37,941 bases of DNA from Dehalococcoidia bacterium. Lineage in GTDB: Bacteria > Chloroflexota > Dehalococcoidia > Tepidiformales > Tepidiformaceae. Shown one piece after another: positions 18,050 to 36,602 of this stretch (the stretch's first letter is position 1; every line of letters begins with the position of its first letter). Below the pieces are notes generated by a model. It had not been told where the DNA came from. It made no database searches and saw only the letters and a list, made by a program, of their open reading frames with translations. The stretch covers positions 1 to 37,941 of the forward strand of contig DAOUID010000314.1 in assembly GCA_034428315.1 (NCBI GenBank), read 5' to 3'. Made by a program: the position numbers and the translations under genes.

Positions 18050-18733
18050 GTGACCCACACCAGCGACTCAGTGCTGGCCTGGCTGCGCGAGAACGGCTCG
18101 GAAGAGGCCCGGGAGGGGATGCTGCGTTACGGAATCCCCAACGAGCATGCCTTCGGACTCGCGATGCGCGACATGAAGAGCTATGCGAAGGAGATCGGAA
18201 AGGACCATGACCTGGCGCTCACGCTGTGGGAGTCAGGCTGGTACGAGGCCAGAACGGTCGCCGTATTCATCGCCGAGCCCTCGGCGGTGACGAGTGCGCA
18301 TATGGACGGCTGGGCCGCCGACTTCGATAGCTGGGCGATCTGCGACACGGCGTGCTTTCACCTGTTCGACCGCACCCGTCACGCCTGGGGCAGGGTGCCG
18401 CGGTGGGCCAGGGCGCGCAGCGAGTTCAAGAAGCGCGGGGCTTTCGCCCTGCTCTGGGGCCTGAGCACCCACGACAAGGAAGCAGACGACGACCGGTTCA
18501 TCGGCGCGCTCCAGTGGATCGAGCACGGCGCCCAGGACGACAGGCTCTACGTGAAGAAGGCGGTGGACATGGCCCTGCGTGCGATGGGCAAACGTAGCCG
18601 CACGCTGAACGACGCCGCCCGCGACATCGCCGCCCGCCTCGCAGCCGACCCGGCGCGGGCGCCGAGCTGGATCGGCCGCCACGCCCTCCGCGAGCTGGAG
18701 TCGGAGCGCGTACAGGCCAGGCTTCGAGGGTAG
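18050..18733 (+). CDS. DNA alkylation repair protein (AlkD-like HEAT-repeat family)
   Basis: 227 aa. MLRYGIPNEHAFGLAMRDMKSYAKEIGKDHDLALTLWESGWYEARTVA...KRGAFALLW...YVKKAVDMALRAMGKRS matches the DNA_alkylation family pattern. Last high-GC gene before the island. Confidence 0.78.
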   Translation: MTHTSDSVLAWLRENGSEEAREGMLRYGIPNEHAFGLAMRDMKSYAKEIGKDHDLALTLWESGWYEARTVAVFIAEPSAVTSAHMDGWAADFDSWAICDTACFHLFDRTRHAWGRVPRWARARSEFKKRGAFALLWGLSTHDKEADDDRFIGALQWIEHGAQDDRLYVKKAVDMALRAMGKRSRTLNDAARDIAARLAADPARAPSWIGRHALRELESERVQARLRG

Positions 18734-19108
18734 GAGTGGCTGGCCACAGGCTGCTGTGCTGCGAACGTTCGAACTGGCGATTGGCCTGTAGGGAATCAAC
18801 CCCAGCTACTATGCGAGAGGGCCGAGAGGGAAACCTGACCGACGGGCAGTTAGTGTCGATTGCGGAACCAGAGCCGAGTTATCGGTCTTCCAATCCGCTC
18901 CAAACGCTGCGGTATTCGTGGGGAGTGAGTTTGCCCTCTCCTCGCGTCACCGCACACCGCACGAGTCGAGGCGGGCCGGGATGACAGTGACACTGCGGTG
19001 AGCAGGCCTCTGCGTCTCCACGCCTACCTTCGCAGCCAGAGTGATGCATTGCTATAGTCCTGAGTGAACCTTAGGCCGCAAGCCGTTGGCGGGTGATCGG
19101 AGCCGACG

Positions 19109-20737
19109 ATGGACGAGCAGCGCTCGGTGGAATCCTCGGACTTCACTCTCGAGGTCGAGAACTTCGGCCCGATAGTGAATGCCAGCGTCGAGTTGCGCCC
19201 GCTCACCGTGTTCGCTGGACCCAGCAACACAGGGAAGTCTTACTTGGCGATCCTCGCCTATGCGCTCCACAGGTGCTTCGGCCCACAGAGGTTTCCGCGC
19301 TACGCCGGGTACCGCGAATACTCCCTGAGGCCACGGCCAGCGGGCCGAACCCGGCTTGCCAGTTTGGCATCAAGTGGCTTGCGGGAGTGGCTATCCGAAA
19401 CCCAAGAGTGGCTGTTTGACACGCCGGAGGGCAAATTGCCTCCACCCCTGCCCCAAGCTGTGGTCGAGCAACTGCGGCCCGCCTTGGAAGCAGCAGGCGA
19501 TCTAGATCGCTACGTGGAATCGGAGATGACGCGGTGCTTTGGCATCGAGCATCACAAGGAGCTAATTCGGCGACCAGGAAGCCACCAAGGCTCCAGACTT
19601 GCTTTGAATATTCCGAGGCATTCGGGGGAGCATCCGAAGGAAATCGTTGGGGATGGCGTACACATGGCACGCTATCAGTTCGACTTCACTCGAAGTCACA
19701 CAAAGTCAGACTCCGGGAAGATCTCGATAGGGCAGCCGGTCCACTTTGGCTCAGAATACTTGGAAGACCTTCGTGAGAGCATACTCCGTAGCACGGACCT
19801 CCGACCAACAGGAAACTGGGATGAAGTCCCTGATAGGGAAGTGGAGTACATTGCAAGGCAAATCGTCGATGCAATTCTTCTGTCGTCATTCCATCCGCTC
19901 AATGCCAATGCTTTCTATCTTCCGGCTAGTCGTACTGGAGTGATGCATAGCCACCAAACTGTCGTTAGCGCGCTGATCCAGAGCGCGACTGCTGCAGGCC
20001 GGCGGCCTACGGCTAGAGTTCCTGTGTTATCAGGAGTACTGGCCGACTTCTTGGATGACTTAATTGCGCTGCCGAACCGCCCATTCCAAGCATCCGCTGC
20101 TGGTCCTCGTAGGCGGCGGCGGAATCCTCAAGCTCGGAGAGAGTTCGATGAACTAGCTGGCCTCTTGGAGGAGAGGCTGCTGAAGGGGAAGGTCGACGTC
20201 GAGAGGGGAGAGACGAACTACCCGACTTTCTCCTACAGGCCACGGGGCTGGAAGCAGGGTCTCCCACTCATGCGGACATCGTCAATGGTGTCAGAACTAG
20301 CTCCCGTTGTGCTCTACCTCCGATACCTGGTACAGCCGGGGGATCTCTTCATCATTGAAGAGCCAGAGTCGCACTTGCATCCAGAGATGCAGTCGGCATT
20401 CGCTCAGGAACTGGCGAGGCTAGTCCGATCCGGAGTTCGCGTTCTGGTGACCACCCACAGCGAGTGGCTCCTTGAACAAATTGGAAATCTGGTTAGGCTC
20501 TCGGAATTGCCAGCAAGAGAGCGCAGAGGGTTAGCGGGAGCAGATGTCGCGCTGAGGCCTGAGGAGGTCGGCGCCTGGCTATTCACGCCAAAGCTGCGAC
20601 CACGGGGTTCGACGGTGGAAGAGATTGAGCTTGAGCAAGAAACGGGCCTCTTCCCGACTGGCTACGAAGAAGTAAGTGCAGCTCTTTATAACGAAAGCGC
20701 GGAGATATTCAACCGTATGCAGGACCCCGCCAGGTGA
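19109..20737 (+). CDS. ABC/SMC-like ATPase of the AAA_15/AAA_21 type
   Basis: 542 aa. Walker A GPSNTGKS (19217-19240). Q-loop-like YLPASRTG. Signature-like TSSMVSELAPVVLYL. Walker B/D-loop LFIIEEPESHLHP (20345-20377). H-loop VTTHS. About 330 aa are inserted between Walker A and the signature. GGAG lies 7 nt before the ATG. Confidence 0.85.
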   Translation: MDEQRSVESSDFTLEVENFGPIVNASVELRPLTVFAGPSNTGKSYLAILAYALHRCFGPQRFPRYAGYREYSLRPRPAGRTRLASLASSGLREWLSETQEWLFDTPEGKLPPPLPQAVVEQLRPALEAAGDLDRYVESEMTRCFGIEHHKELIRRPGSHQGSRLALNIPRHSGEHPKEIVGDGVHMARYQFDFTRSHTKSDSGKISIGQPVHFGSEYLEDLRESILRSTDLRPTGNWDEVPDREVEYIARQIVDAILLSSFHPLNANAFYLPASRTGVMHSHQTVVSALIQSATAAGRRPTARVPVLSGVLADFLDDLIALPNRPFQASAAGPRRRRRNPQARREFDELAGLLEERLLKGKVDVERGETNYPTFSYRPRGWKQGLPLMRTSSMVSELAPVVLYLRYLVQPGDLFIIEEPESHLHPEMQSAFAQELARLVRSGVRVLVTTHSEWLLEQIGNLVRLSELPARERRGLAGADVALRPEEVGAWLFTPKLRPRGSTVEEIELEQETGLFPTGYEEVSAALYNESAEIFNRMQDPAR

Positions 20738-21198
20738 GTGGACTTGTCGCGAGAGTTAGGACCGATGTTCACGACACTTGCATCAAGTCCCGTTGCAGGA
20801 AAGAGGGCTGTACGGCGTCAATGGAAGGATTGCCTTCCCCCCGTATATTAGTGGACCTCGACTGCGACGATCTTCGCCTTCCCGAGGGCCGTCAGCGATG
20901 TGATTACGTGTACTTCGATGGGGACAGGGCGTCGTCAAGGGTCGTACTCATCGAGCTCAAGAAGGGGGCAGTTAAAGGCAGCGAGGTCCTCGGTCAGCTT
21001 CAGGAAGGAGCTAACATCGCCGAAAAGTGGATCCCGCCGGGAACTGCGTTCAGACTCCATCCGGTGGTGGTGCACGGGAAGGGGGTCCACAAACAAGAGA
21101 TGAAACTCCTGCGCAACCGCAGAATCCGATTGCGTGATCGGACGGCACAGGCGTTATTGATGCGCTGTGGTGGATCCCTGAAGAGCGTGCTCAAGTAG
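20734..21198 (+). CDS. Small PD-(D/E)xK-fold protein (putative nuclease)
   Basis: 154 aa. GTGA overlap with the ATPase stop. RCDYVYFDGD...RVVLIELKKG (D57, E74-x-K76; 20902-20961) fits the beta-beta core of restriction-endonuclease-like folds. The motif-level call is mine alone. Confidence 0.5.
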   Translation: MSGLVARVRTDVHDTCIKSRCRKEGCTASMEGLPSPRILVDLDCDDLRLPEGRQRCDYVYFDGDRASSRVVLIELKKGAVKGSEVLGQLQEGANIAEKWIPPGTAFRLHPVVVHGKGVHKQEMKLLRNRRIRLRDRTAQALLMRCGGSLKSVLK

Positions 21199-21203
21199 GT
21201 TGC

Positions 21204-22421
21204 ATGTCCGCTGTGGGCAGTGATAGTAGGGAGTTCTCGCAAGACCTTCGAATTCGGGTCGACTCCGTTCTTGAGGCGGCGCGAGATGTCTCTGGGGTTA
21301 CTGGCTTGACCCATGGGTTCTACCGATACCCCGCCCGCTTCTCTCCACTCTTCGCGCGGGCTGCCATTGATGCCTTCACTGAACCTGGTGACCTTGTGCT
21401 CGATCCGTTCATGGGTGGTGGGACGACTGTCGTGGAGGCACGGACACGCGGCCGCCGCGCCTTCGGGTCGGACACAAGTGCACTCGCGGTATTCATAGCC
21501 CGCACCAAAACGACTGCGCTCACGGACCGAGAGCTCGCGGAAGTTGCTCGGTGGGCTGAGTACCAGGCTGCTCGAAGGAGAGCTTTCAGGAAGGCTGAAG
21601 TCGCCAACGACAATGGCGCTGTCTACCACTTGCGGAATTTTAACAGCCCTCTCACCTGGCGCCTGCGGGACTTTCTGCGGGGTGCCCTCCATCACCTTGA
21701 CGCTCTCGCGACTCCGCGCTCCAGGCGATTCGCGCGCGCTGTCTTGTTGCGGACAGCTCAGTGGGCTGTGGACACGCGCCCTAAGCCCAGAGGTCTTCCC
21801 GAAGTACGGCAGCGCCTCGTCCATGACGTGGAGGAGATGTCTCTTGGGCTGCGGGCGTTCCGGAGTGCGAGGAGCCACGCCGACAGGGCTGCTCGAGTCA
21901 CTCGCCGGCGGCAGGTCGTGCAACAGCGGTCCGCGGAGGCACTACGTGACGCACACTTGCTGACGCAGTTGGGACCTCCGCGCCTCGTCTTGACCTCCCC
22001 TCCATACCCAGGCGTGCATGTGCTATACCACCGATGGCAGCTAGCTGGGGGGAAGGAGACCCCCGCCCCCTTCTGGATTGCGGGCGAAAGAGATGGCGCG
22101 GCCGCGTCCCACTACACCCTCGCCGACCGACACGACCTGGAGGCCTACTTCGAGCGACATGAAGCTGCATTTGCTGCCGTAGCGGAAAGGTGCGACTCAC
22201 GATCCGTGATTGTGCAACTCGTCGCGTTCGCAGACCCCGCGACGCAGCTTCCTCGGTACATGGCGAGCATGGAGCGAGCCGGCTTCCGGGAGTTAGCCCC
22301 TAGCATCCCCCTCAAGGATCGTTGGCGCGATGTCCCGAACCGACGGTGGTACTCGGCGCAGCGAGGAAGGACGCCGGCCAGCAAAGAGCTCGTCCTCTTT
22401 CACGTACCTGTCTCCCGCTGA
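21204..22421 (+). CDS. DNA (N4-cytosine or N6-adenine) methyltransferase, motif I before motif IV
   Basis: 405 aa, starting 5 nt after the upstream stop. YPARFSPLFARAAIDAFTEPGDLVLDPFMGGGTT (SAM-binding FxGxG block, about 21390-21428). About 190 aa later, LVLTSPPYPG (catalytic SPPY, 21996-22007). Confidence 0.8.
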   Translation: MSAVGSDSREFSQDLRIRVDSVLEAARDVSGVTGLTHGFYRYPARFSPLFARAAIDAFTEPGDLVLDPFMGGGTTVVEARTRGRRAFGSDTSALAVFIARTKTTALTDRELAEVARWAEYQAARRRAFRKAEVANDNGAVYHLRNFNSPLTWRLRDFLRGALHHLDALATPRSRRFARAVLLRTAQWAVDTRPKPRGLPEVRQRLVHDVEEMSLGLRAFRSARSHADRAARVTRRRQVVQQRSAEALRDAHLLTQLGPPRLVLTSPPYPGVHVLYHRWQLAGGKETPAPFWIAGERDGAAASHYTLADRHDLEAYFERHEAAFAAVAERCDSRSVIVQLVAFADPATQLPRYMASMERAGFRELAPSIPLKDRWRDVPNRRWYSAQRGRTPASKELVLFHVPVSR

Positions 22422-22459
22422 AACCCATGGGACCGACCCTCCCAGCTTGGCCCTCGGTC

Positions 22460-24877
22460 TCAAGCGCCAGTGATTTGGTCGATGTCCAGGTCGCCGAGCT
22501 CGTTGATGAGGGGAAGGAGCACAGGGCCGATCGCATCAGATCCTGCGGCGATCCTCTCCCTCTCGTCCATGCCCTCGGCAACTCTATAGGTCCCCCCTTC
22601 TGGCTCGCGCAGCAGTCCCAGCCCCACTAGTACGAGCCCGTACTTCCACTGTGCGTCTAGCAGATCGTTCTTCTTGGGCTTCGACCTGCGTTCAGCTCGG
22701 AGGTACTCGTTGTCCATGTTGACCTGGAAGAGGTATTGCACGGCCTGACTGGTCTTGTCCTTGCCGAGGTTCAGGATTCTGAGGGCGGACCACTTGTCCA
22801 TCCCGGCGTCGTCCCAACCGTTTTCGCAGATCTCTTCGATCTTCGGGAATTCAATGCCTGAGGATCTGAGGCTCAGCCGAGTGCGGCGTTTGTCCCGGTC
22901 CCCGCCAGATCGGGTTTTCTGCTCTGGCCCGACGGTGATGCGAGCCCGATTGACGAACGGAGTGACCAGTGTCTCGTCGTTAACCCTGACCTCGACGAGG
23001 AGCTGGTCATCCTCCACAACGCTTGGGGGAAGGTCGAGGCTTAAGTGAGCGACGCCTGCGGACAGGCGCATCACGTAGGTGTACTCGTTCGGTGCAATCA
23101 AGATCCCTTCTCGGTGGAGGCTCACGTCAAGGGAACCGGGGAGGATTGCACGATCAAAGTAGTCGTTCTCGACGTCCGTTGCGAAGTCGATCCGCGTGCG
23201 CTGCCCAATGTGACAGTTCCGCTTGAGTTCCTCGCCGTACGGGAGGTCGAGGAAGCGAAATTGGGTGGGGTGAGGCCGACCTTCGAACTTGTCGCCCTCG
23301 GTGGAAGGCTGGACGGTAGCTTGGTTCGGCAACCGCCTCCCCCGGAGGAAAAGCGCGTTGAGGACACTGGAGTGCCGCATCACCTGCTGGAGCACCTCCT
23401 CAAGGGGGCGATCGTCCGTTAGCCGTTCCTCAAGGCGCCTGTCAGCCCGTTGACGGTTCAACTCACGAAGTCGCTGATCGTCCGCAACTAGCTGCTTTAT
23501 CTTCTCCTCCACTTCCTTGCGGAACTGCGACTCCGACAGTCGGTCGCGACTGTTCTGAGTCAGATCCTCCAGCGATGGGACCGAGAGCTCGGTGCAGTCA
23601 ACCACCACCGCAAGGGCGTTCTCGAGCACACCGAGCCCGACGGCCTTGGTGCCGAAGAGCCGCTTGTGCAGCATCCCATGCGACTGCCCGTTCACGGCGA
23701 AGACCACCCCGTGGTCTCCGCGGTAGCGGCTGGCGTTGTCTGCCTTGAGGCAGAAAATCCGGTAGGTGAATTGCTCCCCACGTACCGTCATTGTGCCCGT
23801 CGCGTCGTACTCTGGGTCCGCTTCCTTCAGCCGGCGATCGAGGCCGGTGAGGTTCCACTCGGTGCTACGTGGCTCTCCTTCCCACCTGCATTCGTGCAAA
23901 CGGATGGGAAGGGGGAGCTGAGGCATCCATACGTCTAGCTCCTGGCGCAGCCCACCGCTCTGCCCGAACTGTGTGATGGCCTCTGTCTGGTATTGGTAGA
24001 GCTTGATGAGTGTCCCGGACTCCACTTCGACCTGGTACGGACTGTTGTACAGAGGGCCGATGGGGAGAGTTGCTGCTGGGAACCGCAGGATCTCTCCACC
24101 TCCGGGGTGTTGGTCAGCGCCGATGGGTGCGAGATACCTGTACGCCGTCATGCTATCCCCCTCCTGGTAATCGCGGCGCACAATCGTGAATCCCCAGTCG
24201 GACGACTCGCCGTCTTCCTCAGCAAGAGCAGGAGCCCGGCGACTCAGGACGAGTTGGAAGTGGCTGTCCCCGCAGAATCGAAGGGCCGCCGTTCCTCCCA
24301 TCGCGAATTTGCCCTGAGTGAAGGCGATGTCCTTCTTGAGACTATTGCCGAGCGAGAGAAGCGTTGCAGGTTGCTTCTCCGGTGCCTGCCCCTCGCCCCG
24401 ATCAAGGATCGTCACGGACGGATAGTTCCGCTGGCGGTCAACCTGCTTGCGCCGGTCGCCAGTGAGCGCAATCGAAGTCGTGGCTCGGGCAACCTTGCGG
24501 ATCACCGCAGGATCCCACGCTTCGAGGGATCCCGAGTACGACGCATCAGGGTTGGCGTCGAAGAACCGTGCAACCGCGCGGCGTACGCTCGTTGGCGCGT
24601 GTGGCCCTCTCGGGTCGATTCCCTCTTCGCGACACCGCCTCATCAGCAACGCGTCAATGGCGTTGGTGATCTTCTCTGCGAGGGCGGCCTCTGGGACGAC
24701 CGCTTGAGCGCCAATCGTCGCGTAGTTGTCCTCGCGGTCACCCAGCAACCGCCACGAAGGTTCGTTATCCCAGAGTCCCGCTTCCGTGAGAGCCTGGACT
24801 ACCTCCTCCTCACGGTCGGCCCCAAGGAGCGTGAACAGCAGCCTGCGGACGGCGGCGTCATCGTTGACGTTGAGCAT
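22460..24877 (-). CDS. GHKL (Bergerat-fold, MORC/HATPase_c_3-like) ATPase with a long C-terminal extension
   Basis: 805 aa. N-box EKITNAIDA (24650-24676). G1 ILDRGEG (24389-24403). G2 QGKFAMGGTAAL (24293-24313). Charged helical segment RKEVEEKIKQLVADDQRLRELNRQRADRRLEERL. GAGG lies 8 nt before the ATG, which is 19 nt after the upstream stop. Confidence 0.65.
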   Translation of the reverse strand: MLNVNDDAAVRRLLFTLLGADREEEVVQALTEAGLWDNEPSWRLLGDREDNYATIGAQAVVPEAALAEKITNAIDALLMRRCREEGIDPRGPHAPTSVRRAVARFFDANPDASYSGSLEAWDPAVIRKVARATTSIALTGDRRKQVDRQRNYPSVTILDRGEGQAPEKQPATLLSLGNSLKKDIAFTQGKFAMGGTAALRFCGDSHFQLVLSRRAPALAEEDGESSDWGFTIVRRDYQEGDSMTAYRYLAPIGADQHPGGGEILRFPAATLPIGPLYNSPYQVEVESGTLIKLYQYQTEAITQFGQSGGLRQELDVWMPQLPLPIRLHECRWEGEPRSTEWNLTGLDRRLKEADPEYDATGTMTVRGEQFTYRIFCLKADNASRYRGDHGVVFAVNGQSHGMLHKRLFGTKAVGLGVLENALAVVVDCTELSVPSLEDLTQNSRDRLSESQFRKEVEEKIKQLVADDQRLRELNRQRADRRLEERLTDDRPLEEVLQQVMRHSSVLNALFLRGRRLPNQATVQPSTEGDKFEGRPHPTQFRFLDLPYGEELKRNCHIGQRTRIDFATDVENDYFDRAILPGSLDVSLHREGILIAPNEYTYVMRLSAGVAHLSLDLPPSVVEDDQLLVEVRVNDETLVTPFVNRARITVGPEQKTRSGGDRDKRRTRLSLRSSGIEFPKIEEICENGWDDAGMDKWSALRILNLGKDKTSQAVQYLFQVNMDNEYLRAERRSKPKKNDLLDAQWKYGLVLVGLGLLREPEGGTYRVAEGMDERERIAAGSDAIGPVLLPLINELGDLDIDQITGA

Positions 24878-24896
24878 GGTGGTGACCTCGTCTTCC

Positions 24897-26144
24897 TTAG
24901 TTGCGCTTTCCGCGCTCGAGCTTGAGCGCCTCGCTCAGCAGGTAGTTGATCGCGGAGACGACCTCCTGCCGACGAGAGATCGGGGTTCGTGAGCCTTCAG
25001 GGACCAGGCCGGCCTTCCTCCAGAGCGCTCCACGGCCGAGGCTGAAGTCGGCGTTCTTCAACAGCTCTACGAGCACTTCCTCGTCCTTTTCTCGTCTCCC
25101 GACCCACTCGTGCCACACAGCAGCTATCACCCTCAGGATGGTGTTGTTGAACGCCAACGTGTTGCCACGTTCCCTCGATGGCTGCGCTTCTCCCACGGCA
25201 AGCCGCTGGTATTCGGTGCGCGCCTTTGTCAGGAACGTGAAGAACCGTTCTGCTGGCTTGGTAATCAGGTCAGAGTCGGTGTCGACTTCAAGCGCTCGCT
25301 GCTTGCTGATACGTCCGTAGTACCCCACCTGTAGGGTTCGAAGCAGAGTCGCGAGCTGATTGTAAGTGATGAGCTTGTCGCTGGTGCCGGACACCGTACT
25401 CCGCTCCATTTCGACGTTCCCGTCCAGTAGGCCGCAGCTGTTCATCACGGCTTCAGCGGCTCGGTTGAAGGGGTCCCGGGCATCGAATCGTGACTTCGTC
25501 AGAGCATCGATAGGGCGAGCCTTCGCGGCGTCCGAGAACATCTGCCGCAGTGACTGGATGTCTACCTCGCCGAATAGGAGGACGGGGATCGCCTCGGACT
25601 CAAGCTGGTCGAGACGTTGCTTTGTCGCCTCGAGTTCCTTGTTCAGCTCCCGGTTGGCGGACTTGCCCCGCTTTTTCGCCTTTGCTCCGTTGATCTTCTC
25701 GTCCAGTTCACGGATTTGAGTACGTCGCTCGTCCACCAAGTCATAGATCGCGCGTCGTCGATGTTGTCCGTCGAACAACTTCAACTGTCCGACAGCCGAG
25801 AGTGGGATGCGGATCACACCGAAGCGTCCTTCTGTGTTGGCGAAGGCTTCGAATTCGATGAGGTCTGGGTCGAGGGCGACCATGATCGCTCCAGATACCC
25901 ACGCAGGCTGGTCCCACAGATAGCCTCGGATCGCGTCGGCGTGAGGCTGATGCAACCTACGATTCGCGTCGCTCACGATGTCATCGTCAACCCGCCGCGG
26001 CAGCAGCCCGTTCAAGTCCTTGAGGGTTAGCGCGAAGCTGTACACGTCCCGTCCGCCCTGGACGAGCCGCATCGCTTGAGCGCTTAGGTCCCCGAACTGA
26101 GGTGATGATTCCGCGGCGACTGCCACGGCACTTGCGTTTACCAT
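24897..26144 (-). CDS. DGQHR-domain protein (DndB/DpdB family, ParB/Srx fold)
   Basis: 415 aa. NRRLHQPHADAIRGYL followed by LKLFDGQHRRRAI (DGQHR at 25758-25772). GGAGG lies 9 nt upstream of the ATG. Confidence 0.8.
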   Translation of the reverse strand: MVNASAVAVAAESSPQFGDLSAQAMRLVQGGRDVYSFALTLKDLNGLLPRRVDDDIVSDANRRLHQPHADAIRGYLWDQPAWVSGAIMVALDPDLIEFEAFANTEGRFGVIRIPLSAVGQLKLFDGQHRRRAIYDLVDERRTQIRELDEKINGAKAKKRGKSANRELNKELEATKQRLDQLESEAIPVLLFGEVDIQSLRQMFSDAAKARPIDALTKSRFDARDPFNRAAEAVMNSCGLLDGNVEMERSTVSGTSDKLITYNQLATLLRTLQVGYYGRISKQRALEVDTDSDLITKPAERFFTFLTKARTEYQRLAVGEAQPSRERGNTLAFNNTILRVIAAVWHEWVGRREKDEEVLVELLKNADFSLGRGALWRKAGLVPEGSRTPISRRQEVVSAINYLLSEALKLERGKRN

Positions 26145-26184
26145 GCCCTACTCAGCCTCCTAGCCAAGGGTGAGAATACAATGT

Positions 26185-26213
26185 AAATTACCCGCTTAAA
26201 TAGCAGTTTGCAA
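26185..26213 (-). promoter_or_regulatory. Possible sigma70-type promoter for the DGQHR-GHKL operon
   Basis: On the minus strand: TTGCAA (26213-26208), a 17-nt spacer, then TAATTT (26190-26185). It sits in the only AT-rich patch upstream of the operon. Consensus match only. Confidence 0.25.
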
Positions 26214-26616
26214 CCCGCATGCTAGGTGGAGCGTACATTCCACCCCTCGTCCCCTCACACCTAGGACTGGCCCGCCTCAGCTAGAGATGGGGAACCAGGC
26301 CGGCCGAGAGCGCCCGGCGCGACGGTGCTCCGCGACTTCCAGCGGCGTGCCCCCATCGGCAGACCGTACGTCGTGGAGCCACTCGGCAGGGACATCCACT
26401 TCCTCGCTCGCCAAGACCTGGCCCGCGGGATGAACCCTTGAACAGACACGCTTCACGGTGCTGGAATCCGCATCCGCCCGGCGTTGGCCGGCTGGCGGAG
26501 TCCTACCCGTGTCGTGTGCGCTTAGCGTCACCCTGCGGCAGGCGGGGCCCTGCTTGCGCGGACACTGCTATGGGTGACCCACCACGGACAGCGGGGCACT
26601 GCGCTCGCACGCCCGG

Positions 26617-26832
26617 CTAGGGTGCTACGCCCACTTCTTGTTCGGCGAGTTGATGCTCGACCCATGTCGACAGTCGCCGCCACTCAGCGATGCTCATCCT
26701 CATGGAGCGCTGATAGCCGGCGCCGGGGTAGGGCGTATCGCTGCTGCTCACGAGATAGATCAGAATCTCTTGACGATCGACCTTCACGCGGAGATTCCAA
26801 GCTGGAATCGCCTTCGCCGTCAGTTCGGCCAT
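26617..26832 (-). CDS. Hypothetical small protein (71 aa)
   Basis: MAELTAKAIPAWNLRVKVDRQEILIYLVSSSDTPYPGAGYQRSMRMSIAEWRRLSTWVEHQLAEQE looks protein-like (strand-strand-helix). The overlapping plus-frame translation is R/P/A-rich junk. No family recognised. Confidence 0.35.
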   Translation of the reverse strand: MAELTAKAIPAWNLRVKVDRQEILIYLVSSSDTPYPGAGYQRSMRMSIAEWRRLSTWVEHQLAEQEVGVAP

Positions 26833-27159
26833 GCTCACCCCCGCCGGAGTTCGCGTCGGCCTCAGGCCGTTGCACGTCCGGTTCAAGTCGTTCTTCGGGT
26901 GGCATCCTATCACCCCGTCGCGGCTCCACCGGCTCTCAGCAATCCCGCCCGGGACCCCTCCCCGTCGAGTCGTGCCCCTCTGGCATGCGGACGCCGATGC
27001 GGGGCTCGTAGGTGTAGTGGCGTGGTTGGCGTCCTCGCCGAGCTTGCGGCGGAGCCTGCTCCCACGATGGTCCGCATGGGGCGCACGTCACCGCCGCCCT
27101 TCTCCCCCCAGACCGGTAGCGTCTGGCCCAGCGGGATTGCTCTAGACTCCTCTCCAGCG

Positions 27160-28257
27160 ATGAGCCTTACCAGCCACCTCAATGACAGAGAGTCGCCGGT
27201 CCGGGGGTTCCTTCATGCCATGTTCCCCAACACGAGGGGGCCACTGGCGGAATGCCGCCGCGCAATGGCCCTGCCGGCAACGATTGACCGCTTGCCGCAG
27301 ACCGCGCCCGCGACCGCCTACGGTCAGCTCGGCATGGCGATCGATTACCGGATCCGGTACCACTTCGCCGAGCTGCTGTCGCGAGACAGGTGGGTCGAGG
27401 ATGAATGGGACGGTACAGCGCCTGCTGAGATGTGGTTGGAGCACATTGAGGATGGCGAGCCCATCGTGTGGCGTGTGCGAGGTGGTCGCGCCGAGCGCAT
27501 CGAGCAGCATGCTGAACTGATTGCCTCGCGCGCGGCAGCGTTCGTGATCCGACGGGACGGCCCGCCGGACGATCTCTTCTGGCACTCACGAGTCCTGGGC
27601 GACCTGGGTGTGCCCGGGGAGCGGAAGCTAGCCCGTGGCTGTGTCGCAGGCTTCTTCGACGCGCTTGATAGCGCCGTCCGCGAGCTCTACCCCCACCAGC
27701 GCAAGCTGACGGCCGAGGAGGAGCGTACGTTCGCCGGCTTCTGCCTTATCCTGGCGGCCTTCGAGTCCGTGTATCGAGCGGGGGCACGTGCCTGGCCACC
27801 ACCGTACCTAGTGGGGCAGCGTCCCCCGGACACCGCGGACGAGCTGCTTGCCCTCGTGCCGGACGCATGGGTGGAGGATGCTGCTGCCCTGGGGAGCGCG
27901 TTCGCCGCACGGTACCCCGAGTGGCGGGGCGCAGAAGCCCAGCTCAACCCGAACTTCGAGGGGAGCAGGGATGTCGGCGGCGCCGATGCGGACTTCATCG
28001 CCGATGCCTGCCTGTGGGACATCAAGACGACCAAGAAGGCAAGCGCGCAAGGTCAGTGGCTCCGCCAGCTGCTCGGCTATGTCCTCCTCGACTACGAGGA
28101 CGAGTACCGGCTCGAGCGCGTGGGTTTGATCCTGCCGAGGCAAGATACGCGGGTGAGCTGGCCGGTCAGCGATCTCATCGCAGCAATGTCGGACCGCACG
28201 GACTTGGAACTGCGGGACCTGCGCGACCGCTTCCGTGCTGTCTGCCAGGGTAGCTGA
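27160..28257 (+). CDS. RecB/Cas4-like PD-(D/E)xK family protein
   Basis: 365 aa from ATG 27160; the track ORF start at 26638 is over-extended. GGADADFIADACLWDIKTTKK...WLRQLLGYVLLDY gives D-x-D ... D-I-K ... QxxxY (27985-28080). Confidence 0.55.
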   Translation: MSLTSHLNDRESPVRGFLHAMFPNTRGPLAECRRAMALPATIDRLPQTAPATAYGQLGMAIDYRIRYHFAELLSRDRWVEDEWDGTAPAEMWLEHIEDGEPIVWRVRGGRAERIEQHAELIASRAAAFVIRRDGPPDDLFWHSRVLGDLGVPGERKLARGCVAGFFDALDSAVRELYPHQRKLTAEEERTFAGFCLILAAFESVYRAGARAWPPPYLVGQRPPDTADELLALVPDAWVEDAAALGSAFAARYPEWRGAEAQLNPNFEGSRDVGGADADFIADACLWDIKTTKKASAQGQWLRQLLGYVLLDYEDEYRLERVGLILPRQDTRVSWPVSDLIAAMSDRTDLELRDLRDRFRAVCQGS

Positions 28258-28482: not shown

Positions 28483-28866
28483 ATGATGCCGCCCTGCCCA
28501 TCGTGGCAGCCAGAGTTGTTGACAACGAGGTCGTTCAGCGTGCAGGCCCGGGGGGATGCTGTCCCCGATCTCGCGCGCGTATATCTCGCCGTAGTGCCCA
28601 CGGCGGCGATGGAGCGCTGGATGAACTGGGGGGCCACCCCCCACGAACTGCGGGAGGGCGGCCACCTCGCGTTCGAGGGCGCGCTCGCCCCGGGTAAGCA
28701 ATTGCGCCCACTGCTCCGTGGCGTCTTCGTCCGCCAGGGCGTCGCCCGCTGCGAGTTCCTCGACGAAGAGCGTGATCCCGAGCACACAGGGAACGGAATG
28801 CGCGGCCGGCGGCGGCACGGGCGGGCGCCTGCTAACGTGTATCCCCCAGGGTTACCTGAGGAATAG
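28483..28866 (+). CDS. Hypothetical protein upstream of the HNH gene
   Basis: Two antisense ORFs share third codon positions here. Over 75 codons (28560-28784) I counted GC1 about 81% and GC2 about 47% for the plus frame. This is the normal coding pattern for a high-GC genome, and it is inverted for the minus ORF 28351..28818. Start codon uncertain. Confidence 0.35.
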   Translation: MMPPCPSWQPELLTTRSFSVQARGDAVPDLARVYLAVVPTAAMERWMNWGATPHELREGGHLAFEGALAPGKQLRPLLRGVFVRQGVARCEFLDEERDPEHTGNGMRGRRRHGRAPANVYPPGLPEE

Positions 28867-28885
28867 CCTGCAGGAGGTGGACGAA

Positions 28886-29446
28886 GTGAGCGACCTGCCT
28901 TCACTCGTGCGTGCGACCACGGCAGAGGCGTACGCGCTGGCCGACAAGACGGGCCGTCTGCCTGAGCGGATCGAGGTCGAAGCCAGCTTCGACGTGGACG
29001 CTGTGGGGGGCCTCGCTCTCAACCAATCCCGTCGGTCTCCCGGTGCGGTGAAGATGAAGATGGAGCTGGCTCCCCAGGCGGCGCCTCCAGGACTGCGCCT
29101 GATAGCAGACCACGCCGCGAGAGAGTCCGTGAGGGGCCGGAAGAAGCGCACGCGCAAGCGGATCAACCACACGATCCTCTACCGAAGACAGGGCGGATAC
29201 TGCGCCGGCTGCCGCCACTACTTTCAGCCGAGGAATCTGACCATCGACCACGTGTTACCACGAGTCGGCGGCGGAAGCGACGAGATTGCCAACCTGCAGC
29301 TTCTCTGCGAGGCCTGCAACCAGCTCAAGGGAAACGGAACGCAGAAGGCGTTGTTGGCCGAATTACGAGCGCGGGGCTTCGTCAATGCCGGGCCGAATAC
29401 ACCGCCGCGTGAGGAGGGCCCGGGCGCTAGGAAGTCGGCGAGGTGA
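28886..29446 (+). CDS. HNH endonuclease with an N-terminal beta-rich module
   Basis: GTG 28886 lies 8 nt after AGGAGG. HNH core CAGCRHYF...LTIDHVLPRVGGGSDEIANLQLLCEACNQLKGN (29201-29329). N-terminal segment ERIEVEASFDVDAVGGLALNQSRRSPGAVKMKMEL. Confidence 0.85.
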   Translation: MSDLPSLVRATTAEAYALADKTGRLPERIEVEASFDVDAVGGLALNQSRRSPGAVKMKMELAPQAAPPGLRLIADHAARESVRGRKKRTRKRINHTILYRRQGGYCAGCRHYFQPRNLTIDHVLPRVGGGSDEIANLQLLCEACNQLKGNGTQKALLAELRARGFVNAGPNTPPREEGPGARKSAR

Positions 29447-29573: not shown

Positions 29574-30285
29574 CTAGGCGGCCAGCGCCCCCTTCTGCTC
29601 CTGCTCGAGCGCCCACTCGAACAGGGGGAGCGTGGGGGCTTCGTCGCGACGCCGGCCACGAGGCGGATGCGGATCCTCCTGCTCGTCGGCCAGGAACTCC
29701 GCCCACGAGAACAACGAACGCTGCTGCTCGGGCGCATCCTTGCGGCGCGCTTCCGCTGCGCTCGTGACCGCGATCGCAACCGGCTCGGGCACGCGCCACT
29801 CGTCGTCGACCAGCAGCGCCTCGGCCTCCGCCGCGACCTGCTGGGCCTCGGCGAAGACCGACTCGACCGAGCCGGCGTCCTCCTCGCCCGCGACGATCTT
29901 TCTCGCCAGGGCGAGCATGAGGTCGTCACCGTCGTCCCCGTAAGCGGCGAGGCCGTCCTCGGGCAGCTCGCCCTCAACGGCAAGCGACGACTGGAGCTTC
30001 TGCGCCACGAGCTTGAGGGCGTCGGCCTGCAGGGTGTTCCGGTAGGCCATGAAGACGACCTGGACGGGCTCGGTCTGGCCGATGCGCCAGGAGCGCCGTG
30101 ATGCCTGCCTCATCGTATAGACCGAGTAGTCCGTCTCCGCCCATACGATTGTTGGAAACTGCGCTGGCGGCTCGTGCGGCCGTCCTTGAGGGAATCACCT
30201 CGTCGCGCCCGACGGTGTGCTTGACGAAGCCGTAGCGCTCGATCCAGCGGCTTCCTCGCGCGGCGGAAGTGCCGGTGTGAAGCAA
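29574..30285 (-). pseudogene. Remnant of an SNF2-family helicase C-terminus
   Basis: IVWAETDYSVYTMRQASRRSWRIGQTEPVQVVFMAYRNTLQADALKLVAQK is helicase motif VI context (QAxxRxxRIGQ). The frame is open only back to 30194. Further upstream, homology-like sequence (SRWIERYGFVKHTVGRDEV) is in another frame. No motif I-IV region exists. Confidence 0.6.
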
Positions 30286-30598: not shown

Positions 30599-32170
30599 GT
30601 GCCCGCCAGCACCAAGGACGCCAACAGCGCCACCACCGGCTACGAGGCCGAGCTGTGGGGGATGGCCGACGCCCTCCGCGGGAGCATGGACGCCGCCGAG
30701 TACAAGCACGTCGTCCTCGGGCTCATCTTTCTCAAGTACATCTCCGATGCCTTCGAGGAGGCTCACGCCAAGCTGGAGTCCGAGCGCGACCAGGGTGCCG
30801 ACCCTGAGGACCCCGACGAGTACCGCGCCCAGAGCATCTTCTGGGTGCCGCCTGAGGCGCGCTGGGCGCACCTGAAGGCGCAGGCCAAGCAACCGACCAT
30901 CGGGCAGCTGGTCGACGATGCCATGGCCGCCATCGAGCGGGACAACGAGGGGCTCAAGGACGTGCTCCCCAAGGACTACGCCCGCCCCGCCCTCGACAAG
31001 ACGCGCCTTGGCCAACTCATCGACCTCGTCAGCAACATCCGGGTCGGGGACGAAGAGTCCCGCTCGCGGGACGTGCTCGGCAGGGTCTACGAGTACTTCC
31101 TGTCGCGGTTCGCCAGCGCCGAGGGGAAGCGGGGCGGGGAGTTCTACACGCCTCGCTCCGTCGTCAGGCTGCTCGTCGAGATGCTCGAGCCGTACAACGG
31201 TCGTGTGTACGACCCCTGCTGCGGCTCCGCCGGCATGTTCGTGCAGTCGGTCGAGTTCATCCGGGCGCATGCCAGCGGGAACGGCAACGGCGGCAAGGCC
31301 CGCGCCGACATCTCCATCTACGGCCAGGAGTCCAACTACACGACGTGGCGCCTCGCCCGCATGAATCTCGCCATCCGCGGCATCGAGGGCCAGATTGCCC
31401 ACGGCGACACCTTCCACAACGATCGCCACCCCGACCTGAAGGCCGACTTCATCCTCGCCAATCCCCACTTCAACGACTCCGAGTGGCAGGGGGAGCTCCT
31501 CACCGACGACCAGCGCTGGGCCTACGGCGTCCCGCCCGCGGGGAACGCCAACTTCGCCTGGGTGCAGCACATGGCGCACCACCTCGCGCCGAACGGTGTG
31601 GCCGGCTTCGTGCTGGCCAACGGCTCGATGTCGTCGAACCAGTCGGGCGAGGGCGAGATCCGCAAGAACCTGATCGAGGCTGGCCTCGTCGACTGCATGG
31701 TGGCACTGCCCGGCCAGCTCTTCTACTCGACCCAGATACCCGCCTGCCTCTGGTTCCTCGCCCGAAACCGCCACGGCGGGAGCCACGACCGAAGCGACAA
31801 GGTGCTCTTCATCGACGCCCGCAAGGTGGGCCACATGGTCGACCGCACGCACCGCGAGCTTAGCGACGACGACATTCAGCGTGTCGCCGACACCTACCAC
31901 GCCTGGCGAGGCGAGGAGGACGTGGGCGAGTACGCCGACGTCCCCGGCTTCTGCAAGAGCGCCACGCTTGAGGAGGTGCGCAAGCACGGCCACGTGCTTA
32001 CCCCCGGACGCTACGTCGGCACCGAGCCGCAGGCAGACGACGGCGAGCCCTTCGCGGAGAAGATGGCCCGCCTCAGCACGCAGTGGCGCGAGCAGCAGGC
32101 CGAGGCGGCCAAGCTCGATGAAGCGATCGAGGAGAACCTGCGCAGCCTGGGGTTCCCTGAAACGGGGTGA
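30599..32170 (+). CDS. hsdM: Type I restriction-modification system methyltransferase subunit
   Basis: HsdM_N pattern [52 protein letters not shown]. Motif [13 protein letters not shown]. Motif IV NPHFN. GTG start. Confidence 0.93.
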
Positions 32171-32185
32171 AGTAGCACATACCTG

Positions 32186-32214
32186 TTGTGTCAGTTTCCC
32201 CAAAGTCCCATAAT
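32186..32214 (+). promoter_or_regulatory. Possible internal promoter for higB
   Basis: TTGTGT (32186-32191), a 17-nt spacer, then CATAAT (32209-32214). It lies in the AT-rich 58-nt gap after hsdM. Consensus match only. Confidence 0.3.
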
Positions 32215-32228
32215 GGGATCGAGGCGGT

Positions 32229-32528
32229 TTGCACTTGCACATCATCGCCAAACGGACACTGCGGAAATTCTGGGAGAGCCACCCGAACGCTGAGCAACCG
32301 CTGCTTGCCTGGTTCCGCACAGTCGAACACGAAGACTGGGACACGCCGGCGAAGGTGAAGGCGAGGTTCCCGAAGGCCAGCATCGTTGGCGACAGCCGCG
32401 TGGTCTTCAACATCCGGGGCAACGAGTACCGCCTCGTTGTCCACGTCCACTATCCGTCTCGGCGCGTCTATATCCGGTTCGTGGGGACGCATGCCGAGTA
32501 CGACCGCATTGATGCACGGGAGGTGTAG
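32229..32528 (+). CDS. higB: Type II toxin HigB family (mRNA interferase)
   Basis: HIIAKRTLRKFWESHPNAEQPLLAWFRTVEHEDWDTPAKVKARFPKASIVGDSRVVFNIRGNEYRLVVHVHY is the canonical HigB_toxin pattern. TTG start at 32229 or 32235. Confidence 0.85.
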   Translation: MHLHIIAKRTLRKFWESHPNAEQPLLAWFRTVEHEDWDTPAKVKARFPKASIVGDSRVVFNIRGNEYRLVVHVHYPSRRVYIRFVGTHAEYDRIDAREV

Positions 32529-32561
32529 CAACTACCACCGTCACCCTAGGGCCGGAATGAT

Positions 32562-33785
32562 ATGGAGAGAGATATGGTCAACGTGAGGCCCATCCGAACC
32601 GAAGCCGACTACGAAGCCGCTCTGGCGCGCGTTGCGGAGCTCATGGACGCCCGCGAAGGGACGCCCGAGGGGGAGGAACTTGACGTGCTCGCCGACCTCG
32701 TCGAGGTCTATGAGGACAAGCACTTCCCCATGGGCTACCCCGACCCCGTCGCCGCGATCGAATTCTGCATGGACCAGCAGGACCTGGCCCCGCGCGACCT
32801 CGTTCCCTACATCGGGAGCCGCGCTCGGGTGTCCGAGGTGCTCTCGGGGAAGCGAGCGATCACGATGTCCATGGCGCGAGCACTGCACGAGCACCTCGGC
32901 ATCCCCGCCGAGGTGCTCCTGCAGAAGCCTGCCCCCGCCGGCGATGCCGCCCTCGACACCCTCGACGCCGAGCGCTTCCCCCTCAAGGAGATGGCGAAGC
33001 GCGCCTGGATACCCGATGTTCCGAACCTCAAGGAGCGAGCAAGCGAACTGGTGGCCGGGCTCCTCGGTCGCGCCGGCGGCCCCGATGCCCTCACCGCAGT
33101 CCCGATGTACCGGAAGAACGACCACCAGCGCATCAACGCCAAGACCGATCCCCACGCCCTGCGAGCCTGGTGCTGGCAGGTGCTCGCTTCTGCGCACGAC
33201 GACCCTCCGAGCGCCGAGTACGAGACCGGAACTGTCACCCTTGAGTTCTTGCGGGCAGTCGCGCAGTTGAGCGTGTCGGAGGACGGACCGGTACGGGCGA
33301 AGGACTATCTCGCCGACCACGGGATCGCCCTCCGCGTGGAGCGCCACCTCCCGCGGACACACCTCGACGGCGCCGCCTTCCGGCTGCCGGGGAAGCCGCC
33401 CGTCATCGGCCTCACGCTGCGCTACGACCGCATCGACAACTTCTGGTTCTGCCTGCTGCACGAGCTGGCCCACATCGGCCGCCACTTTGACGGCCGCCCC
33501 GAGGGCTTTGTCGACGACTTCGACCTCCCGGGGGAGAGCGCACGCGAGACGGAGGCCGACGAGTGGGCGCAGGAAGCGCTCATCCCGAGCGACGAGTGGC
33601 AACGGAGCGCGATCTGGCTGGAGCCAGCTCCCCTGAATGTGTACTACCTGGCGAACTCCCTGGACATCCATCCCGCCATCGTCGCCGGCAGGATCCGCCG
33701 CGAGACCGACGACTATCGGCGCCTCTCGCAACTGGTCGGGACGGGCCAGGTCCGCCAGCAGTTCGAGGAGAAAGAGGCCGAGTGA
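32562..33785 (+). CDS. HigA-like HTH antitoxin fused to an ImmA/IrrE (COG2856) zinc metallopeptidase domain
   Basis: The N-terminus is PIRTEADYEAALARVAELMDA...DPVAAIEFCMDQQDLAPRDLVPYIGSRARVSEVLSGKRAITMSMARALHEHLGIP (HigA/XRE HTH). The C-terminus has FWFCLLHELAHI (HEXXH at 33459-33473) and EADEWAQEALIP. Confidence 0.85.
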   Translation: MERDMVNVRPIRTEADYEAALARVAELMDAREGTPEGEELDVLADLVEVYEDKHFPMGYPDPVAAIEFCMDQQDLAPRDLVPYIGSRARVSEVLSGKRAITMSMARALHEHLGIPAEVLLQKPAPAGDAALDTLDAERFPLKEMAKRAWIPDVPNLKERASELVAGLLGRAGGPDALTAVPMYRKNDHQRINAKTDPHALRAWCWQVLASAHDDPPSAEYETGTVTLEFLRAVAQLSVSEDGPVRAKDYLADHGIALRVERHLPRTHLDGAAFRLPGKPPVIGLTLRYDRIDNFWFCLLHELAHIGRHFDGRPEGFVDDFDLPGESARETEADEWAQEALIPSDEWQRSAIWLEPAPLNVYYLANSLDIHPAIVAGRIRRETDDYRRLSQLVGTGQVRQQFEEKEAE

Positions 33786-34426
33786 CTGAATTCGTACCCG
33801 TAGGCGACCTTCACGTCGTCCTTCAAACGGGACCGCAGACTGTGGACTGGGTGATCGTGGCAGCGACTGTGGTGATCGCTGTATCCGCCCTCGCCTCCCT
33901 CTGGTTGAACTGGCGGCTGACCCAGGACAATCGTGCGCTCCGGAAAGCTGGCACGGAGCCGGTGGTAGTGGCCTACCTGGAGATCAAGAGACTGTCCGCC
34001 GCCTACTTGATCTATCTCGCGCTGGAGAATGTTGGGCAAGGGCCTGCGCTCGATGTGGAGTACTTCGTGGATGCCGACCCTCAAGACTTCGCTGCCCACG
34101 GAGTCCTGAAGGTGCCTGTGAGGACTCAACGCAAGGTTGCGAGTCTGCTTCCACAAGGTGGACGGATCGAGCGCTTCATGGGAGGCAGCACGACCCTGCT
34201 TGGTGACAGCGAAGAGGCTGGGCTTCAGCCCTTCCGCGTTAGGGTCTCCTACACAAACCTGCGGGGCGTTGCTGCTGAGTCCAAAGAGTACCCCCAAGAC
34301 ATCTCCGAGGTGAGAGAAGTCGTGGAGGTTGTCCCCTCCGACGAACGGATTGCGAAGGCCCTCGAGAAAATCGAGAAGCACCTCTCTAGAGACGCCGCTG
34401 ACGAAGCGGGGGAAGAAGTGTCATGA
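33782..34426 (+). CDS. Hypothetical single-pass membrane protein
   Basis: GTG 33782 gives a GTGA overlap with the upstream stop. One TM helix, WVIVAATVVIAVSALASLWLNW, then a roughly 170-aa soluble part with an acidic tail. ATGA overlap with the hsdS start. No family recognised. Confidence 0.5.
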   Translation: MTEFVPVGDLHVVLQTGPQTVDWVIVAATVVIAVSALASLWLNWRLTQDNRALRKAGTEPVVVAYLEIKRLSAAYLIYLALENVGQGPALDVEYFVDADPQDFAAHGVLKVPVRTQRKVASLLPQGGRIERFMGGSTTLLGDSEEAGLQPFRVRVSYTNLRGVAAESKEYPQDISEVREVVEVVPSDERIAKALEKIEKHLSRDAADEAGEEVS

Positions 34427-35658: not shown

Positions 35659-35675
35659 GCCCAAAGGATCTGATA

Positions 35676-36548
35676 ATGGCACTTATCCCTCCCTTCTTCT
35701 TGAACACGACAGTTGCGCTCGGCGTCCCCTTACAGGACGGAGAAGTGCAATTCAGCGCCACGGGTTTTCTGTACGGTCACCCTACAGGCCAAGTTGATGA
35801 TCAAGGCGATAATTTCTATTGGCTGTTCCTTGTAACTAATCGCCACGTTTTTGAACAGGCAATACAAAGAAGTCAAACAATGATGGCTCGATTCAATAGG
35901 CCCTTCGGGTCCGAGCCCAACATGTACCGGCTAGACTTGAGTCAAGACGACGGAAGCCCCTCGTGGTTTGCTCATCCCCTTGCGGAGAATGATGTTGCAG
36001 TAATGTACATTAACCACGAGGCACTAAAGAGTGATGGTATTGAGTACGCATTTTTCGAAGAAGGAAGGCACACGTGTTCTTTGGAGGATGCCCGTACTTC
36101 AGGCGTCAGCGAAGGGGATGGAGTCTTCACCCTAGGGTTTCCCCTCGGAAATACCGGGGAAGAGAGGAACTACGCAATAGTGAGACAGGGCATCATAGCC
36201 AGGATCAGAAACTGGCTCAGCGGAACCACTCATATGTTCCTTATCGATGCTTCTGTTTTCCCCGGAAACAGCGGTGGTCCAGTACTGCTCAAGCCGGAAG
36301 CAATTGCTATTGAGGGGACACAAACTAATGCCCACTGCAGCCTAATTGGGATGGTGTCCTCTTATTTGACATATACAGAAGTCGCGGTAAGTGAGCAGAC
36401 GGGTCGTCCGCGGATGATATTCGAGGAGAACTCTGGTTTGGCGAGCGTGGTCCCTCAGAACGTCATTCAGCAAACGGTTTCCCTTGCTGTGGACAGACTT
36501 GGCCTGCGTAGGCAGGTTGCCCCTGCTGAGCCTAGGAGTGTGGAGTAG
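35676..36548 (+). CDS. Trypsin-like (S1/Trypsin_2) serine protease
   Basis: 290 aa from ATG 35676. Catalytic triad context: LVTNRHV (His57, 35844), ENDVAVM (Asp106, 35991), FPGNSGGPVLL (Ser199, 36270). No signal peptide is evident. GC is visibly lower than in the neighbours. Confidence 0.8.
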   Translation: MALIPPFFLNTTVALGVPLQDGEVQFSATGFLYGHPTGQVDDQGDNFYWLFLVTNRHVFEQAIQRSQTMMARFNRPFGSEPNMYRLDLSQDDGSPSWFAHPLAENDVAVMYINHEALKSDGIEYAFFEEGRHTCSLEDARTSGVSEGDGVFTLGFPLGNTGEERNYAIVRQGIIARIRNWLSGTTHMFLIDASVFPGNSGGPVLLKPEAIAIEGTQTNAHCSLIGMVSSYLTYTEVAVSEQTGRPRMIFEENSGLASVVPQNVIQQTVSLAVDRLGLRRQVAPAEPRSVE

Positions 36549-36602
36549 AGGCCGTTCCCCGAAGATGCCGCTCAGCGCTGTTTGTGTTTGACACCCTGAG
36601 CG

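Follow-up and report, generated by a model that had tools for sequence, protein, structure and literature searches.

The stretch of DNA analysed here, hereafter the window, comprises 37,941 nucleotides (nt) of contig DAOUID010000314.1 from a Dehalococcoidia bacterium (assembly GCA_034428315.1). A lower-GC island (57-63% GC over ~19-26 kb versus ~70% in the flanking mreBCD/PBP2/rodA region) opens on its left side with three co-directional genes, which encode an ATPase, a small protein of 154 residues and a DNA methyltransferase. They are followed on the opposite strand by genes for an 805-residue protein and a DndB-like protein (Table 1). The ATPase stop codon and the GTG start codon of the small gene overlap as GTGA at 20734-20737. 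The small gene ends with TAG at 21196-21198 and, after a 5-nt spacer, the methyltransferase begins with ATG at 21204. An earlier sequence-only reading of the locus had described this arrangement of open reading frames (ORFs), and the overlap, the gap and every motif it quoted from the three proteins were found at the expected positions. Around the island, a search for insertion scars (direct repeats, ends of insertion sequences (IS)) returned just short two-copy matches expected by chance, and no tRNA gene was present.

Table 1. Genes and sequence features of the two adjoining gene blocks, with positions in the window.
Feature	Position	Strand	Basis
OLD/AAA_15-type ABC ATPase gene, 542 aa	19109-20737	+	ORF list
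Small PD-(D/E)xK-type nuclease gene (predicted), 154 aa, GTG start	20734-21198	+	ORF list
N4/N6 DNA methyltransferase gene, 405 aa	21204-22421	+	ORF list
GHKL (MORC/Hsp90/Topo VI-B-like) ATPase gene, 805 aa	22460-24877	-	Motifs, AF2/Foldseek
DndB-like (DGQHR, ParB/Srx superfamily) gene, 415 aa	24897-26144	-	Pfam/TIGR matches
Promoter-like site, TTCGCA-18-TATAGT with TG	19029-19058	+	Consensus match
Junction of two independently inherited DNA blocks	21192-21240		blastn

The ATPase contains a Walker A motif, GPSNTGKS (residues 37-44, including K43), a signature-like SSMVSEL (391-397), a Walker B motif, LFIIEEPESHLHP (413-425), and an H-loop, TTHS (448-451), and the Walker A, Walker B and H-loop motifs were kept in 10 homologues. 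It matched the Pfam families AAA_15 (8e-19) and AAA_21 (4.7e-13). In PADLOC, the best of 89 matches was PD-T4-4_A (3e-35, 120 bits), followed by PDC-M47A (2e-27), with NsnB, AriA, GajA and Old ranking below both. The PD-T4-4_A match extended into the C-terminal region of the ATPase, where residues 374-534 aligned with positions 288-455 of the 460-position model. The sequence thus supports an assignment to the OLD/AAA_15-type ABC ATPases, in agreement with the earlier identification of an ABC-type ATPase.

The small protein carries the motifs CDYVYFDGD (residues 56-64, including D57) and VVLIELKKG (70-78, including E74 and K76). When its profile was searched against a library clustered at 50%, 1029 cluster representatives were retrieved at E<=1e-3; a word-indexed search had returned four non-self relatives only. 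Most relatives were 155-160 residues long, and the profile began near residue 30. In an alignment of 66 family members, C26 and E74 were invariant, while C16, D41, D43, C56, D57, K76, G78, Q88, L89, G92, P110, C145 and L149 were at least 90% conserved. The shorter NCBI call of the gene (P0001, 125 residues) was rejected because the N-terminal ~29 residues, which include C16 and C26, are conserved family-wide. For the same reason, the long GTG form is taken as the true start and the GTGA overlap as the true junction with the ATPase gene.

Sequence libraries gave no direct identification of this protein: at E<=0.01, Pfam, NCBIfam, PHROGs and PADLOC all lacked a match, and a PDB sequence search with the family profile produced noise only. 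An AlphaFold2 (AF2) model was obtained with a mean predicted local distance difference test score (pLDDT) of 95.9 and a predicted template modelling score of 0.91. Its elements run in the order alpha(3-11), beta-hairpin, beta(37-41), beta(58-62), beta(69-76), alpha(82-97) and beta(107-114). In this alpha-beta-beta-beta-alpha-beta arrangement, the second core strand begins at D57 and the third carries E74-x-K76, a geometry canonical for PD-(D/E)xK proteins. The leading Foldseek matches were nearly all PD-(D/E)xK enzymes, both in the PDB (Bse634I, Cdn1, FokI, EcoO109I, Can2, Cap4, Card1, MspJI, Mus81, AddB and Cas4) and in a viral library (UL24, VRR-NUC and RecU). When the 66 family members were compared with PADLOC one by one, 53 matched PDC-M47B (best 2e-8), four matched the best PD-T4-4_B model, and one or two matched Cas4. 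The small protein is therefore best read, as had been proposed from its motifs, as a minimal PD-(D/E)xK nuclease with D57, E74, K76 and Q88 as predicted catalytic residues. The conservation of C16, C26, C56 and C145 suggests a Zn or Fe-S site, which would resemble those of Cas4- and AddB-type PD-(D/E)xK nucleases. Two of these four cysteines sit in the N-terminal extension.

The distribution of the ATPase and the small gene was examined in 16 fetched loci, 13 of them distinct (L001-L003, L009-L018 and L023-L025). A genome and metagenome locus search with alignment A1, which reached closer relatives only, yielded five genome and five metagenome loci. In all 13 distinct loci an ATPase homologue lay immediately 5' of the small gene, and a 4-nt overlap of the two genes was read from the coordinates of at least eight. 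The surroundings of the pair varied. It was flanked by housekeeping genes alone in L013, L016 and L023, and by a LeuRS gene downstream and a DEAD/MZB helicase gene upstream in L009, while other defence or mobile genes stood alongside it in L001, L010 and L025. A methyltransferase of the type found in the window occurred within 7 kb of the pair in none of the 13. The ATPase and small genes are an autonomous, conserved two-gene unit. No relative of the small protein was detected among plasmids by tblastn. In the Rhodothermales locus L010 (984-4498, 7674-9444), McrBC lies upstream of the pair and a second pair, of an AAA_15/21 ATPase and a DUF3226 protein, lies downstream; a 25-residue DUF1156-like remnant directly follows the small gene of this locus.

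The same succession of an AAA_15/21 (ABC) ATPase and a small PD-(D/E)xK nuclease characterizes PD-T4-4 (Vassallo et al. 2022), whose nuclease has been classed as PD-(D/E)xK (bioRxiv 10.1101/2025.07.10.664194), and the PADLOC candidate system PDC-M47. The predicted nuclease of the window differs from these in its conserved N-terminal extension of ~29 residues and its four conserved cysteines, and the pair differs in belonging to a high-GC lineage and in abutting a methyltransferase gene. A further counterpart is WonAB of the Vibrio cholerae WASA-1 prophage, which combines an OLD-type ABC ATPase with a variant PD-(D/E)xK nuclease predicted to dock on the ATPase's C-terminal extensions. WonAB requires both of its genes and nothing beyond them, depends on the two catalytic sites, and protects by abortive infection; a relationship links it to PD-T4-4 and to operons of the 'OLD-ABC ATPase + novel REase' type (Krishnan et al. 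2020) (PMC12137116). The window pair is likened to WonAB by architecture and through PD-T4-4, not by sequence. WonAB is prophage-borne and occurs mainly in Gram-negative bacteria, whereas one pattern-seeded scan of viral contigs returned no relative of the small protein of the window. Judged from these relationships, the pair is a divergent member of the PD-T4-4/PDC-M47/WonAB kind of two-gene defence. This divergent branch of paired ABC ATPases and putative PD-(D/E)xK nucleases occurs in metagenome-assembled genomes of several phyla, and the family with the four-cysteine nuclease (~1000 cluster representatives) is no more than half-recognised by current catalogues.

Other combinations of an ABC-type ATPase and a nuclease were also compared. 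In Septu (PtuAB), PARIS (AriAB), Gabija (GajAB) and OLD, too, a nuclease is paired with, or fused to, an ABC/AAA_15-type ATPase. Septu, PARIS and Gabija were rejected as assignments, the effectors of these systems being HNH or TOPRIM and that of the window PD-(D/E)xK-like. The NCBIfam model of PtuA scored 14.9 bits against the window ATPase (cutoff 500), and the AriA, GajA and Old models gave weaker matches, from 1e-20 to 1e-8. HEC-01 to HEC-03 (Payne et al. 2024) are also cassettes of an ABC ATPase and a nuclease, but their effectors are TOPRIM, NERD or PIN proteins. Their host is Hma, a system of a helicase, a DUF1156 methylase and a DUF499 ATPase, in contrast to the methyltransferase/GHKL/DndB genes that adjoin the window pair.

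A different set of partners was found for the methyltransferase. Its motif I, DPFMGGGTT (residues 67-75), precedes motif IV, TSPPY (264-268), and it matched N6_N4_Mtase in Pfam (1.5e-12) and MTase_II in PADLOC (1e-16). From more than 5000 homologues, six close loci (L004-L008 and L022; 71-82% identity) were fetched, four of them distinct. All showed the arrangement seen at 21204-26144 of the window: the methyltransferase, then a convergent gene for a protein of ~801-810 residues, then a gene for a DndB-family protein of 415-422 residues. Neither an AAA_15 ATPase nor the small gene lay upstream of the methyltransferase in any of the four distinct loci. At larger distances, homologues of the 805-residue protein from other phyla (L019-L021, 38-43% identity) still adjoined a methyltransferase of the same family in the absence of a DndB gene, and the ATPase-nuclease pair was found in none of these three loci. 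As the distant homologues keep both genes without DndB, the methyltransferase and the 805-residue protein form the core of this module.

The 805-residue protein had no match in Pfam, PADLOC, NCBIfam or PHROGs, and a PDB sequence search gave just noise. More than 650 homologues were found; among the 120 best listed, none had a Pfam domain and any names given were 'hypothetical protein'. The family has invariant N-box, G1 and G2 motifs of the GHKL type, namely E67-K68-x2-N71-x2-D74, D158-x-G160-x-G162 and G188...G193-G194. In the C-terminal region, D633, N719, D721 and N722 are likewise invariant. In Foldseek, the AF2 model (pLDDT 82) matched the ATPase-transducer modules of TRAP1, Hsp90, MORC2, Topo VI-B and GyrB at 1e-8 to 1e-6. 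The model comprises a GHKL and transducer region, a coiled coil, Ig-like beta-sandwich domains and a helical C-terminus. Library scans, the AF2 model and Foldseek revealed no nuclease domain in this protein, and no superfamily II (SF-II) helicase was found in the module.

The DndB-like protein matched the Pfam family DndB (1.5e-45) and the DGQHR model TIGR03187 (1.6e-25). Its score against the dndB model TIGR03233 was 60 bits, below the cutoff of 328. The Dnd phosphorothioation system was rejected, as the DndB-like gene stood alone and no DndA-, DndC-, DndD- or DndE-like gene was present among the other island ORFs scanned. A DndB-like gene accompanied the module in L004-L008 and L022 and was absent from L019-L021. 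This protein of the ParB superfamily is a candidate for the nuclease of the module, one that is not universal across the loci.

MORC/paraMORC GHKL ATPases have been described in predicted restriction-modification (R-M) operons with methylases (Iyer, Abhiman and Aravind 2008, PMC2292703). The window module resembles them in having a GHKL and transducer ATPase with intact ATP-binding motifs that is linked to a DNA methylase, and differs in lacking an SF-II helicase and a recognisable restriction endonuclease, HNH or Vsr nuclease. Its accessory gene is DndB-like, a type not mentioned in PMC2292703, and the comparison is drawn at the level of MORC/paraMORC as a class, above the division into paraMORC1-5. 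From these comparisons and the model, the segment 21204-26144 appears to be an uncharacterised R-M-like module whose closest class is MORC/paraMORC. A literature search for the combination of DndB, GHKL and methyltransferase, and for 'PDC-M47', found nothing, and a reappraisal of Dnd mentions no GHKL partner (PMC10853773). The module of methyltransferase and ~805-residue GHKL ATPase occurs widely, both with and without DndB. Of what the window contains, it is the more interesting subject for experiments and probably the most novel item.

The boundary between the two sets of genes was also visible at the nucleotide level. By blastn, 21240-26226 of the window behaved as one 5-kb block, with 86.6% identity to L022 and 74-77% to L004-L008, and 19140-21192 aligned to the pair of L002 with 68% identity. 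Since one block ends and the other starts there, the homology breakpoint is placed at 21192-21240. This junction takes in the small gene's stop codon, the spacer of 5 nt and some 12 codons at the start of the methyltransferase gene. At its N-terminus, the methyltransferase is unlike its relatives for ~12 residues, and conservation begins at about D13-L14-R15. As far as sequence comparison indicates, the methyltransferase provides modification for the neighbouring GHKL/DndB module and not for the ATPase-nuclease pair.

Taken together, these observations make it likely that 19109-26144 consists of two defence modules joined end to end in the low-GC island, which are separable both in evolution and in function. 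The first (19109-21198) would be a translationally coupled OLD-type ABC ATPase and small PD-(D/E)xK nuclease. By analogy with WonAB, an ATPase dimer would serve as sensor and regulator and would hold the nuclease on its C-terminal extension. An infection cue could then lead to ATP binding and hydrolysis that license the D57/E74/K76 nuclease, and cleavage of nucleic acid would provide abortive-type protection, with no requirement for a methyltransferase. In the second module (21204-26144), the methyltransferase would mark self DNA, and the GHKL ATPase together with a nuclease would attack unmarked DNA. The pair would have been placed at the start codon of the methyltransferase, which would now probably be transcribed by read-through.

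This last step concerns transcription across the junction. A sigma-70-like site ~50 nt 5' of the ATPase start was the sole candidate promoter in 18600-22600; being a consensus match, with one site found and 0.7 expected, it is a weak call. No terminator-like site was found on the + strand between the three genes, and co-transcription of the ATPase gene, the small gene and the methyltransferase gene is plausible from the sequence. The view that the methyltransferase belongs to the same transcription unit as the pair probably holds. The conserved partners of the methyltransferase are the convergent GHKL ATPase gene and the DndB-like gene.

The junction is not the sole place where this type of pair meets a methylase. 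In L003 (4604-17488), the pair is part of an Hma system, with an SNF2-type helicase on one side of it, a DUF1156 methylase on the other and DUF499 beyond. The same layout was found in L002 (1334-4033) and L014 (1794-9395), where Hma is degraded and the pair is intact: L002 has IS insertions, and just fragments of DUF1156 and DUF499 are left in L014. L002 and L003 hold the nearest relatives of the window pair, with proteins 56-63% identical, and in L002, L003 and L014 the pair is 10-11 nt upstream of the DUF1156 methylase gene. An Hma-embedded cassette was considered for the window itself and rejected, since tblastn detected no Hma gene there. The methylases that adjoin the pair in the window and in these three loci belong to two unrelated families. 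Hma, BREX, DISARM and Type I R-M loci commonly harbour embedded defence cassettes, often of an ABC ATPase and a nuclease, and the cassettes tested so far function independently of Hma (bioRxiv 10.1101/2024.01.29.577857). The position of the pair beside a methylase fits this published pattern of embedded defence.

Several points weigh against two separable modules. The sample of contexts is small, at 13 distinct pair loci. In four of 14 loci (the window, L002, L003 and L014), the pair ends 5-11 nt before the start of a methylase. Regulatory coupling is probable in the window, where the methyltransferase is likely expressed from the promoter of the pair, because the 5-nt gap has no room for a separate one. 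For the small nuclease, no Foldseek match reached E<1e-3 (best 0.024 in the PDB and 0.010 in the viral library), and the window protein itself fell short of significance against PDC-M47B (E=0.013) and gave no match to PD-T4-4_B. Finally, the mechanism given for the second module is a guess, as no nuclease domain was recognised in it. The scenarios of residual coupling considered below overlap, and their probabilities are not additive.

One alternative is that the pair, once juxtaposed, came to work as an arm of the methyltransferase/GHKL/DndB system. In such a five-gene composite, the pair would supply the missing nuclease or a backup abortive effector, and would do likewise in the Hma systems of its relatives. 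The lack of a recognised nuclease domain in the GHKL protein, the repeated position of the pair directly 5' of the methylase of a larger system (L002, L003, L014 and the window) and the likely read-through transcription are in line with this proposal. It is nevertheless considered unlikely. The methyltransferase/GHKL/DndB block is complete without the pair at every other locus, so the pair is not needed; the pair has stayed intact while Hma decayed in L002 and L014, which points to autonomy; and the embedded cassettes tested were independent of Hma.

A related proposal, to which a similarly small chance is given, is that the placement at the start of a methylase is not accidental and that the cassette has been selected to occupy the transcription unit of a methylase. 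One possibility under such selection is that the cassette rides on a gene that the host cannot lose. Another is that it provides abortive backup, with its expression or activity tied to the methyltransferase of a larger R-M-like system in the way that the methylase-associated proteins MAD3 and MAD4 are tied to the methylase of the methylation-associated defence system (MADS). The window pair would in that case function within a five-gene paraMORC/DndB system otherwise devoid of a recognisable nuclease. With or without selection of this kind, the window presents a small defence cassette flush against the methylase of a larger system, an arrangement that bears on the assembly and co-regulation of defence islands.

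The sequence-only reading had gone further and proposed that the ATPase, the PD-(D/E)xK nuclease and the methyltransferase constitute one ATP-dependent R-M-like system in which methylation shields self DNA. The three genes are indeed co-directional: the first two overlap at GTGA, 5 nt separate the second from the third, and no terminator-like site intervenes. The nearest relatives of the pair likewise stand directly 5' of a methylase. A precedent for an AAA-type ATPase inside a methylation-based system exists in MADS, where the methylase gene mad5 is undeletable unless mad2 or mad3 is also deleted. The proposal did not survive comparison with other loci and with the catalogues, and is now quite improbable. 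The trio was seen in the window alone, with the window-type methyltransferase at none of the 13 pair loci and the pair at none of the four distinct close methyltransferase loci, and the pair can be found by itself among housekeeping genes. The homology breakpoint falls precisely between the small gene and the methyltransferase. Moreover, the pair falls in catalogued families, as PD-T4-4 and PDC-M47 in PADLOC and as WonAB-like in the literature, and WonAB functions as two genes without a methylase. MADS itself was rejected as an assignment: the MAD3 model NF047739 scored 24 bits against a cutoff of 420, and no MAD-like kinase, specificity or core genes were present among the island ORFs scanned. 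As a new class, R-M coupled to ATP by way of an ABC motor would have been notable; the evidence points to two abutting systems.

A small protein without catalytic function, serving the ATPase as an adaptor or a metal-binding regulator, would make the pair something else than a defence based on a nuclease. This reading would accord with the modest Foldseek scores, the empty Pfam, NCBIfam and PDB sequence searches and a possible structural metal site at the four cysteines, yet it is highly improbable given the invariant E74, the at least 90% conservation of D57, K76 and Q88 at canonical PD-(D/E)xK positions, the dominance of PD-(D/E)xK nucleases in the fold lists and the family matches to PDC-M47B, PD-T4-4_B and Cas4 models.

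Beyond the two modules, the window contains further defence-related genes. A Type I R-M system occupies 30599-37941, with hsdM at 30599-32170, hsdS at 34423-35658 and the N-terminus of hsdR from 37337 to the end of the window. A gene for a 407-residue Peptidase_M78 (ImmA/IrrE-like) protein (32562-33785) is embedded between hsdM and hsdS. A gene for a 304-residue trypsin-like peptidase (35634-36548), with a GC content at third codon positions (GC3) of 0.54, overlaps the end of hsdS. With these two genes placed between hsdM, hsdS and hsdR, embedding recurs within the window.

Two more genes on the + strand separate the Type I R-M system from the DndB-like gene and fall outside the block conserved with L022. 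The first (26638-28257) encodes a 539-residue protein whose C-terminal region is PD-(D/E)xK-like (PADLOC RTasPDDEXK 2.7e-13, PDC-S61 5e-5), and the second (28718-29446) a 242-residue HNH endonuclease. On the opposite strand, a 179-residue ORF (29574-30113; GC3 0.90), which has no Pfam match and includes the sequence WRIGQTEPVQVVF, resembles an SF2/SNF2 helicase reduced to its C-terminal part, possibly the remnant of another defence gene.

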